A stretch of DNA of 64,000 nucleotides from Escherichia coli (GTDB taxonomy: Bacteria; Pseudomonadota; Gammaproteobacteria; Enterobacterales; Enterobacteriaceae). Below, piece after piece: positions 10,032 to 62,304 of this stretch; position 1 is the first letter of the stretch; every line of letters starts with the position of its first letter. The stretch is from the NCBI RefSeq assembly GCF_024502345.1, contig NZ_JALDNN010000001.1; one strand, given 5' to 3'. The notes under the pieces are model-generated. The model had not been told where the DNA came from. It saw only the letters and a list, made by a program, of their open reading frames with translations, and did no database searches. The translations under genes and the position numbers were made by a program.

Positions 10032-10114
10032 CCCAGAGGTATTGATAGGTGAAGTCAACTTCGGGTTGAGCACATGAATTACACCAGCCTGCGCAGATGC
10101 GCAGGTTTTTTTTT
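10032..10114 (+). ncRNA. omrB: OmrB small RNA
   Basis: CCCAGAGGTATTGATAGGTGAAGTCAACTTCGGGTTGAGCACATGAATTACACCAGCCTGCGCAGATGCGCAGG followed by a T9 run. Confidence 0.9.
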
Positions 10115-10228: not shown

Positions 10229-10316
10229 CCCAGAGGTATTGATTGGTGAGATTATTCGGTACGCTCTTCGTACCCTGTCTCTTGCACCAACCTGCGCGGA
10301 TGCGCAGGTTTTTTTT
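10229..10316 (+). ncRNA. omrA: OmrA small RNA
   Basis: CCCAGAGGTATTGATTGGTGAGATTATTCGGTACGCTCTTCGTACCCTGTCTCTTGCACCAACCTGCGCGGATGCGCAGG followed by a T8 run; shares 5' and 3' ends with OmrB. Confidence 0.9.
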
Positions 10317-38735: not shown

Positions 38736-38812
<77 letters not shown>

Positions 38813-38844
38813 TCACCGTACTGCTTTATTTCATTAAATTTGAT

Positions 38845-38921
<77 letters not shown>

Positions 38922-38954
38922 TCACCGTACTGCTTTACTTCATCAAATTTTAAT

Positions 38955-39031
<77 letters not shown>

Positions 39032-40339: not shown

Positions 40340-40570
40340 TGATATTCTGTATGCCGTTTTTACGGATATGACAGGGTGAGGGGTAACCTCACATCCTGAT
40401 TATTGACTAAGTGCGCGTTGTTCATGCCGGATGCGGCGTGAACGCCTTATCCGGCCCACAAATCATGCAAATCCAAAATATTGCAGGAGTTATGTAGGCC
40501 TGATAAGCGTAGCGCATCAGGCATTTATGCGTTTAGGGTGAGGGAAAACCTCACCCTTTTTAATTCTGAG
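40340..40570. repeat. BIME / REP cluster between mltA and tcdA
   Basis: Several imperfect palindromic units (GCCGGATGCGGCGTGAACGCCTTATCCGGCC; AGGCCTGATAAGCGTAGCGCATCAGGC; GGGTGAGGG..CCTCACCC). Confidence 0.75.
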
Positions 40571-43081: not shown

Positions 43082-43272
43082 GGTACTCCTCGGCTTGATG
43101 CACCGATCGTGACGCAAAATTCACTTTGATACAAGGAGAGTGCTAACCATCAGAATTATCTGGATATCCTGGCGAAGCCGCGTCAGTAACATATGCTGAA
43201 TAGTGTTAGGCGTTAATTTTAGCCTGTTAATCAATACTATTAAGATTTATTAATCGCTTTAAGGAGAAGATG

Positions 43273-43500
43273 ATGAAAAAGACTGCCGCAATTATTTCTG
43301 CCTGTATGCTGACTTTTGCCCTGAGCGCCTGTTCCGGTTCGAACTATGTGATGCACACCAATGACGGACGTACCATCGTCTCTGACGGCAAACCACAGAC
43401 TGATAACGATACCGGTATGATTTCGTATAAAGACGCTAATGGCAACAAACAGCAGATCAACCGTACCGACGTGAAAGAGATGGTCGAACTGGATCAGTAA
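43273..43500 (+). CDS. ygdI: Small lipoprotein (paralog of YgdR)
   Basis: 75 aa; lipobox LSACSG. Confidence 0.85.
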
Positions 43501-43516: not shown

Positions 43517-43722
43517 AAAAAAAAGCACCGCAATTAGGCGGTGCTACATTAATCACTATGGACAGACAGGGTAAATGTACAGGAAGTGAAAAAAGGTAGC
43601 TTTGCTACCATGGTCTGAATCGCAGACCAATTGCAAACACAACAACACAACATCACAACCGTAAGCCAAAAGTTCACCAGAACACGCATTCCGATAAAAC
43701 TTTTCGTTCCGGCTCAGGAAGT
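43517..43722 (-). ncRNA. gcvB: GcvB small RNA
   Basis: Reverse complement begins ACTTCCTGAGCCGGAACGAAAAGTTTTATCGG, contains the G/U-rich region GTTGTGATGTTGTGTTGTTGTGTTTGC, ends in a terminator hairpin plus T8; divergent from gcvA. Confidence 0.9.
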
Positions 43723-43850
43723 GCCGCCACTATAGGTATTTGCTGGTAGAAGCTCAACGGACAATTTATAATGGCTCAGATTAAAAAAACTAATAGGTTA
43801 CACAGTGTAATCTAATTGTTAAATTCATTTAACATCAAAGTTTAAAAGCC

Positions 43851-44768
43851 ATGTCTAAACGATTACCACCGCTAAATGCCTTACGAGTTTTTGATGCCGC
43901 AGCACGCCATTTAAGTTTCACTCGCGCAGCAGAAGAGCTTTTTGTGACCCAGGCCGCAGTAAGTCATCAAATCAAGTCTCTTGAGGATTTTTTGGGGCTA
44001 AAACTGTTCCGCCGCCGTAATCGTTCACTCCTGCTGACCGAGGAAGGGCAAAGCTATTTCCTCGATATCAAAGAGATATTTTCGCAATTAACCGAAGCGA
44101 CGCGTAAACTCCAGGCCCGTAGCGCCAAGGGGGCGTTGACGGTCAGTTTACTCCCCAGTTTCGCCATTCATTGGTTGGTTCCGCGACTTTCCAGCTTTAA
44201 TTCAGCTTATCCGGGAATTGACGTTCGAATCCAGGCGGTTGATCGTCAGGAAGATAAACTGGCGGATGATGTTGATGTGGCAATTTTTTATGGCCGGGGC
44301 AACTGGCCGGGGCTACGGGTGGAAAAACTGTACGCCGAATATTTATTGCCGGTGTGTTCGCCGCTACTGCTGACTGGCGAAAAACCCTTGAAGACCCCGG
44401 AAGATCTGGCTAAACATACGCTATTACATGATGCGTCACGCCGTGACTGGCAGACATATACCCGACAGTTGGGGTTAAATCATATCAACGTTCAGCAAGG
44501 GCCAATTTTTAGCCATAGCGCCATGGTGCTGCAAGCGGCTATCCACGGGCAGGGAGTGGCGCTGGCAAATAACGTGATGGCGCAATCTGAAATTGAAGCC
44601 GGACGTCTTGTTTGCCCGTTTAATGATGTTCTGGTCAGTAAAAACGCTTTTTATCTGGTTTGTCATGACAGCCAGGCAGAACTGGGTAAAATAGCCGCCT
44701 TTCGCCAATGGATCCTGGCGAAAGCCGCTGCTGAACAAGAAAAATTCCGCTTTCGTTATGAACAATAA
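43851..44768 (+). CDS. gcvA: Glycine cleavage system LysR-type regulator
   Basis: 305 aa. Confidence 0.93.
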   Translation: MSKRLPPLNALRVFDAAARHLSFTRAAEELFVTQAAVSHQIKSLEDFLGLKLFRRRNRSLLLTEEGQSYFLDIKEIFSQLTEATRKLQARSAKGALTVSLLPSFAIHWLVPRLSSFNSAYPGIDVRIQAVDRQEDKLADDVDVAIFYGRGNWPGLRVEKLYAEYLLPVCSPLLLTGEKPLKTPEDLAKHTLLHDASRRDWQTYTRQLGLNHINVQQGPIFSHSAMVLQAAIHGQGVALANNVMAQSEIEAGRLVCPFNDVLVSKNAFYLVCHDSQAELGKIAAFRQWILAKAAAEQEKFRFRYEQ

Positions 44769-61893: not shown

Positions 61894-62259
61894 GTCGACA
61901 GGGAGTCAGACAACGAAGTGAACATCAGGATGATGACACTTCTGCAGGACACACCAGGATGGTGTTTCAGGGAAAGGCTTCTGGATGAAGCGAAGAGGAT
62001 GACGCAGGACGCGTTAAAGGACACCTCCAGGATGGAGAATGAGAACCGGTCAGGATGATTCGGTGGGTCAGGAAGGCCAGGGACACTTCAGGATGAAGTA
62101 TCACATCGGGGTGGTGTGAGCAGGAAGCAATAGTTCAGGATGAACGATTGGCCGCAAGGCCAGAGGAAAAGTTGTCAAGGATGAGCAGGGAGCAACAAAA
62201 GTAGCTGGAATGCTGCGAAACGAACCGGGAGCGCTGTGAATACAGTGCTCCCTTTTTTT
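61894..62259 (+). ncRNA. csrB: CsrB regulatory RNA (CsrA-sequestering)
   Basis: Begins GTCGACAGGGAGTCAGACAACGAAGTGAACATCAGGATGATG; about 18 GGA-containing motifs (CAGGATG, AGGATG, AGGAAG, AGGGA); ends in GC hairpin plus T7. Confidence 0.9.
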
Positions 62260-62304
62260 ATTCCTGCTATCCTTCGCGGCAGTTTTTCTTATTGAGGTTG
62301 CTTT

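Follow-up and report, generated by a model that had tools for sequence, protein, structure and literature searches.

Sequence anatomy and conservation of the gcvB locus, encoding the small regulatory RNA GcvB, in a non-K-12 Escherichia coli chromosome

GcvB is a small regulatory RNA whose transcription is made responsive to glycine by GcvA together with GcvR, and whose targets are mRNAs of amino-acid transport and metabolism, with the R1 region serving as the main seed and R2 and R3 being used for some of them (PMC9299463). SroC, an RNA derived from the 3′ UTR of gltI, pairs with SL1 and with SL4/R3 and thereby triggers the decay of GcvB by RNase E (PMC9299463; see also PMC4474525 for SroC as a sponge of GcvB). 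Two terminators, t1 and t2, give rise to GcvB RNAs of ~130 and 206 nt, and putative GcvA sites for the activation of gcvB were placed within the region from -90 to +1 (PMC1557403). According to the same paper, in which Urbanowski et al. (2000) is cited, the majority of gcvB transcripts in E. coli stop at t1, and the 206-nt RNA is needed for the repression of dppA and oppA. The Salmonella RNA differs from that of E. coli by 10 nt (PMC9299463). In Rfam, the GcvB family (RF00022) includes members from Enterobacterales, Salmonella and Yersinia among them, Pasteurellaceae and Vibrionaceae. The reference gene is gcvB of E. coli K-12 MG1655 (b4443), annotated in the curated record as an ncRNA of 206 nt, ‘small regulatory RNA GcvB’, at NC_000913.3 2942696..2942901.

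In the window analysed here, i.e., the whole stretch of 64,000 nucleotides from an E. coli contig (NZ_JALDNN010000001.1), the minus strand of positions 43517..43722 (ACTTCCTGAGCCGGAACG...GCACCGCCTAATTGCGGTGCTTTTTTTT, with the 5′ end at 43722 and the 3′ end at 43517) almost certainly represents a chromosomal gcvB gene, which would encode the 206-nt, Hfq-dependent, trans-acting small RNA GcvB; no feature of the sequence speaks against this reading. The original prediction, made from the letters of the sequence, had described a minus-strand RNA of about 206 nt at this position as the known GcvB regulator, and had proposed an Rfam search and an alignment with K-12 gcvB as checks; both bear it out, and the agreement goes well beyond chance. 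By using Rfam 15, the RF00022 model was aligned end to end (model positions 1-204 of 204) to exactly 43517..43722 on the minus strand, with a score of 199 bits in relation to a gathering score of 42 and an E value of 2.1e-47, and the same match was returned when the whole window was scanned. In the alignment with b4443 all 206 of 206 nucleotides were identical, R1 included. Length, promoter hexamers, both terminators and neighbours are also the same in the two strains, with the gene order rlmM-ygdD-gcvA / gcvB / ygdI-csdA-csdE common to both. The gcvB gene of the window is already known and ordinary, being the K-12 allele itself.

The 5,001 bases around the gene align colinearly with those of K-12, with no indels and 79 differences (1.6%), a rate at which about 3.4 substitutions would be expected within gcvB, where none was seen. 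As the flanking genes differ by about 1.6% from those of K-12, the strain is a non-K-12 E. coli, and the window reads as part of an ordinary chromosome of such a strain, for which the result on gcvB confirms the presence of the standard, fully conserved allele. In comparison with the other members of RF00022, the locus shares the five hairpins, the position of R1 between SL1 and SL2, a conserved R2, the terminal terminator and a divergent gcvA. As for differences, the R1 of the Escherichia type carries an 8-nt insertion (uuguguug) with respect to the RF00022 consensus, and in the Pasteurellaceae SL1 and SL4 are much shorter than, or different from, those of the Escherichia type.

The RNA had been described as wedged between ygdI and the gcvA promoter, and the open reading frames of the window agree with this placement. 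The gene for the LysR-type regulator GcvA (305-aa ORF, 43851..44768, plus strand, colinear with K-12 b2808) diverges from gcvB, the ATG of gcvA and the 5′ end of gcvB being separated by 128 bp of intergenic DNA on opposite strands. On the other side, the lipoprotein gene ygdI (43270..43500, plus strand, K-12 b2809) converges on gcvB with a gap of 16 nt to its 3′ end; ygdI is context only and not a part of the GcvB system. Both arrangements recur among the matches listed in our survey of other species, where each of the 14 testable loci has a divergent gcvA homologue at a distance of 108-134 bp to the 5′ end of gcvB (two of the 16 GcvB loci end less than 100 bp upstream and were left out of this count), and where, in the loci of Enterobacteriaceae, ygdI converges on gcvB with a gap of 14-34 bp.

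Within this intergenic region, a consensus scan found a candidate sigma-70-type promoter for gcvB (43729..43757, minus strand), composed of a -35 hexamer TTGAGC (43757..43752), a 17-nt spacer and a -10 hexamer TATAGT (43734..43729) whose end is 7 nt upstream of the annotated 5′ end at 43722. In the aligned control regions, the TTG of the -35 and the TA.A.T of the -10 are kept from Escherichia to Pasteurellaceae. The promoter and the terminators t1 and t2 described below are motif matches only. Further upstream, at -72 to -57 from the gcvB 5′ end, lies a dyad block, ATTAGTTTTTTTAATC (43779..43794, minus strand), which conforms to the T-N11-A pattern of LysR-type sites, falls within the published region from -90 to +1 (PMC1557403) and is conserved out to Pasteurellaceae. 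No other part of the intergenic alignment, which comprises 16 species, is as well conserved, and A60-T74 of its first row are largely invariant. We infer from these features that the block is probably the GcvA activation site. Three substitutions in relation to K-12 were found in the region between gcvA and gcvB, at 43803, 43809 and 43846; they are located between the two ATTAG motifs and close to the start codon of gcvA, and none of them touches the conserved -35, -10 or dyad block. This allele occurs unchanged in other E. coli, in which an 801-base segment comprising gcvB and both flanks is 100% identical.

The GcvB RNA was folded to a minimum free energy of -62.1 kcal/mol (z = -3.63), better than all 200 dinucleotide shuffles. 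Projection of the Rfam consensus onto the RNA places SL1 at nt 9-59 (43664..43714, all elements being on the minus strand), R1 at nt 63-92, SL2 at nt 94-112 (43611..43629), SL3/t1 at nt 114-128, a single-stranded R2 at nt 135-148, SL4, which holds R3, at nt 145-177 and SL5/t2 at nt 178-199. The G/U-rich seed R1, GGUUGUGAUGUUGUGUUGUUGUGUUUGCAA (43631..43660), is unpaired in the consensus and identical to K-12; the string quoted for it in the original prediction, GTTGTGATGTTGTGTTGTTGTGTTTGC, was found at nt 64-90 (43659..43633). SL3 followed by six U forms an internal Rho-independent terminator, t1 (43589..43609), which was located by both the terminator scan and the Rfam structure, with the hairpin GGTAGCAAAGCTACC (43609..43595) followed by TTTTTT, and which was an element absent from the original prediction. 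R2, CACUUCCUGUACAU (43575..43588), which starts with CACUUCCUGUA, corresponds to the region described in PMC9299463. The R3 seed region lies inside SL4, at about nt 150-165 (43558..43573, borders approximate), and the residues G156, G160 and C162 of the window RNA match the letters of the published R3 mutants G156C, G160C and C162G, so the numbering used here agrees with that of the literature. At the 3′ end, the terminator scan found the Rho-independent terminator t2 (43517..43545), in which SL5, AGCACCGCCTAATTGCGGTGCT (43545..43524; AGCACCGC-CUAAUU-GCGGUGCU), is followed by a U-run amounting to eight consecutive U up to 43517 with the last stem U included, as had been described from the sequence. 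A terminator hairpin with its U-run is the usual Hfq-binding 3′ module of small RNAs. The promoter and terminator motifs, whose absence the original prediction had named as counter-evidence together with divergence in R1, are both present, and R1 is not diverged.

Orthologues were sought by scanning species-representative genomes with the pattern TGATGN{0,12}TTGTGTTTGCA, which has few fixed bases and returned at least 120 loci, mostly chance matches in unrelated phyla. Among the matches listed, 16 GcvB loci were picked by nhmmer and Rfam, belonging to Escherichia albertii, Citrobacter (2), Enterobacter (4), Superficieibacter, Yersinia, Photorhabdus (2), Haemophilus (3), Rodentibacter and one Enterobacterales MAG. 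Loci from Haemophilus haemolyticus, Arsenophonus and Vibrio sonorensis gave no GcvB match at the gathering score and were rejected, as were those on second contigs of Rodentibacter rarus, H. seminalis and H. sputorum. Because the scan pattern required the R1 core, the invariance of R1 in the resulting alignment is circular and was not counted. R2, which was not selected by the pattern, is nearly invariant across 17 species; the columns of the terminal poly-U are invariant across the aligned species, and Pasteurellaceae retain the t2 helix with some bases changed.

Through this alignment, the five-hairpin structure is supported by covariation in 16 orthologues from other species. When the Rfam structure was imposed on the 17 species, 86.5% of the cells were paired, in comparison with 34-45% in slid controls, for which the 3′ partners were moved by 1-3 columns, and 19 pairs were changed on both sides, in comparison with 4-11 in the same controls. 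None of 500 shuffles reached the observed percentage paired, number of double changes or covariation score. Across species, pairing amounts to 91-95% in helices 1 and 2 of SL1, where 9 pairs are altered on both sides; 5 of the 8 pairs of SL2 change on both sides, and the SL3/t1 helix, with 94.7% pairing, shows 3 compensatory pairs.

The same alignment bears on whether the RNA could be an mRNA, or an RNA of dual function, through translation of a mechanical ORF of 46 codons that lies inside it (MRVLVNFWLTVVMLCCCVCNWSAIQ..., 43549..43689, minus strand). This ORF does have an ATG start and is intact, with 43-46 codons, in Escherichia, Citrobacter, two Enterobacter genomes and Superficieibacter, a retention that is to be expected because the RNA is near-identical in these close relatives. 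Frame and length vary, however, already within close Enterobacteriaceae, where 29 codons are left in Enterobacter sp. Ag1 and the frame is lost in sp. Bisph1, and Yersinia, Photorhabdus, all Pasteurellaceae and the MAG lack the ATG, although they keep the RNA structure and R2. In addition, the ATG is part of the apical loop and 3′ strand of SL1 and is not preceded by an evident Shine-Dalgarno sequence, and according to PMC1557403, in which Urbanowski et al. is cited, the GcvB ORF is not translated. The small-protein reading was rejected on conservation, its probability being close to nil, and GcvB reads as non-coding, with no conserved ORF. Very unlikely, too, is a further role for the products of the locus, either through the ~130-nt t1 isoform with a regulatory function of its own or through translation of the ORF under some condition. 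The isoform would keep SL1 and R1 and be devoid of R2, R3 and one of the SroC pairing sites, and as that site is missing it might escape the SroC sponge; nothing in the data points to a separate role of the isoform or to translation of the ORF.

It may also be asked whether the stretch is passive intergenic sequence, made up of the gcvA upstream region and a ygdI terminator, with no independent RNA in this strain. With its position 24 nt past the stop codon of ygdI, the t2 hairpin could, on the plus strand, also help to end ygdI transcription, and the 15 PGAP-annotated RefSeq E. coli records consulted have no feature under the gcvB match. On the plus strand, however, what comes after the hairpin is ACATTAATC instead of a T-run, whereas the minus strand carries a promoter motif and covarying hairpins over 200 nt; the 206 nt of gcvB are more conserved than the flanking coding genes, and the curated K-12 record has the ncRNA. 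The missing PGAP feature is an annotation gap and not evidence of absence, and a passive stretch is extremely improbable in relation to an active gcvB gene. The practical value of the gcvB assignment lies in annotation, as its coordinates, strand and sub-features can be transferred to PGAP-annotated genomes.

Because the sequence is identical to that of K-12, the published mechanism of GcvB should apply to the window, and it is from experiments on this identical sequence that Hfq dependence, control by GcvA, GcvR and glycine, the set of targets, the repression of their translation and the sponge action of SroC are inferred. Transcription of gcvB would start at 43722 on the minus strand, from the sigma-70 promoter, and would be activated by GcvA, the product of the divergent gene, via the conserved site upstream of the -35, with GcvR counteracting GcvA unless glycine is abundant. 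It would end either at t1, after ~130 nt, or at t2, after 206 nt. R1, or R2 and R3 in the case of some targets, would then pair with C/A-rich sequences located within, or immediately 5′ to, the ribosome-binding sites of numerous mRNAs of amino-acid and peptide transport and metabolism, e.g., dppA, oppA and cycA, by which translation initiation would be blocked and the mRNA level lowered. SroC, processed from the gltI 3′ UTR, would pair with SL1 and R3, leading to degradation of GcvB by RNase E.

Target pairing was approached by duplex prediction of R1 against the region -80 to +30 of K-12 dppA and oppA. With dppA the predicted duplex covers -44 to -11, contains AACAACAAACAUCACAAUUG and has an energy of -27.1 kcal/mol, equalled by 8 of 300 shuffles; with oppA it covers -10 to +15 at -23.1 kcal/mol (9 of 300 shuffles equal). 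Both predicted duplexes sit on C/A-rich stretches at the ribosome-binding sites. When 48 unrelated start regions of the window were paired with R1, the mean energy was -18.9 kcal/mol and the best value -30.4 kcal/mol, obtained through G-U-rich pairing with G/C-rich sequence. As G-U pairing makes R1 promiscuous in silico, duplex energy is a poor discriminator and, taken alone, weak evidence for target pairing by R1. In K-12, whose GcvB has the identical sequence, this regulation has been established by experiment (PMC9299463). Regarding targets within the window itself, none of sdaC, argA, lysA, csdA, ygdI and ygdR is mentioned as a published GcvB target in PMC9299463.

The distribution of gcvB within the species was evaluated by megablast against complete E. 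coli genomes. The gene was found in 5,425 of 5,426 genomes, with a median of one copy per genome, and 5,389 of the 5,425 carriers have a copy at least 99% identical. One genome gave no gcvB match and two others have copies just 80-90% identical, for which deletion, misclassification or membership of a cryptic clade could account. A natural disruption was observed in the bovine isolate E. coli OkiPb01677 (NZ_AP042483.1, 3137300..3140000), where an insertion of ~1.3 kb with a transposase of the IS4-like ISVsa5 family interrupts gcvB after about nt 125, and where R2, R3 and t2 are removed from the promoter-proximal part. A plasmid copy of gcvB was also considered, on account of nine PLSDB records of 0.57-5.4 Mb with a match, and was rejected. 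These records apparently consist of chromosomal sequence that was entered as plasmid, six of the nine being chromosome-sized (4-5.4 Mb), and no evidence of a mobile gcvB copy was found among the nine matches.

The Rfam scan of the window also returned other RNAs. A match of 43 nt to ES036 (CssrF) was found at 40459..40501 on the plus strand, with a score of 46.5 bits in relation to a gathering score of 37.6; when K-12 coordinates are transferred, the match is located between tcdA and mltA, downstream of the latter gene, and it may represent no more than a terminator hairpin. Three tandem tRNA genes (38739..39031, minus strand), each with 61.4 bits and spaced by about 109 bp, are probably metZ, metW and metV, judging from their position relative to K-12. 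Two tandem small RNAs of the OmrA-B family (RF00079) lie on the plus strand at 10032..10113 and 10229..10316, with 86 and 97 bits, respectively, as expected for omrA and omrB of E. coli. A full-length CsrB (RF00018, 380 bits, E = 1e-110), a well-known global regulatory RNA, was matched at 61903..62262 on the plus strand.
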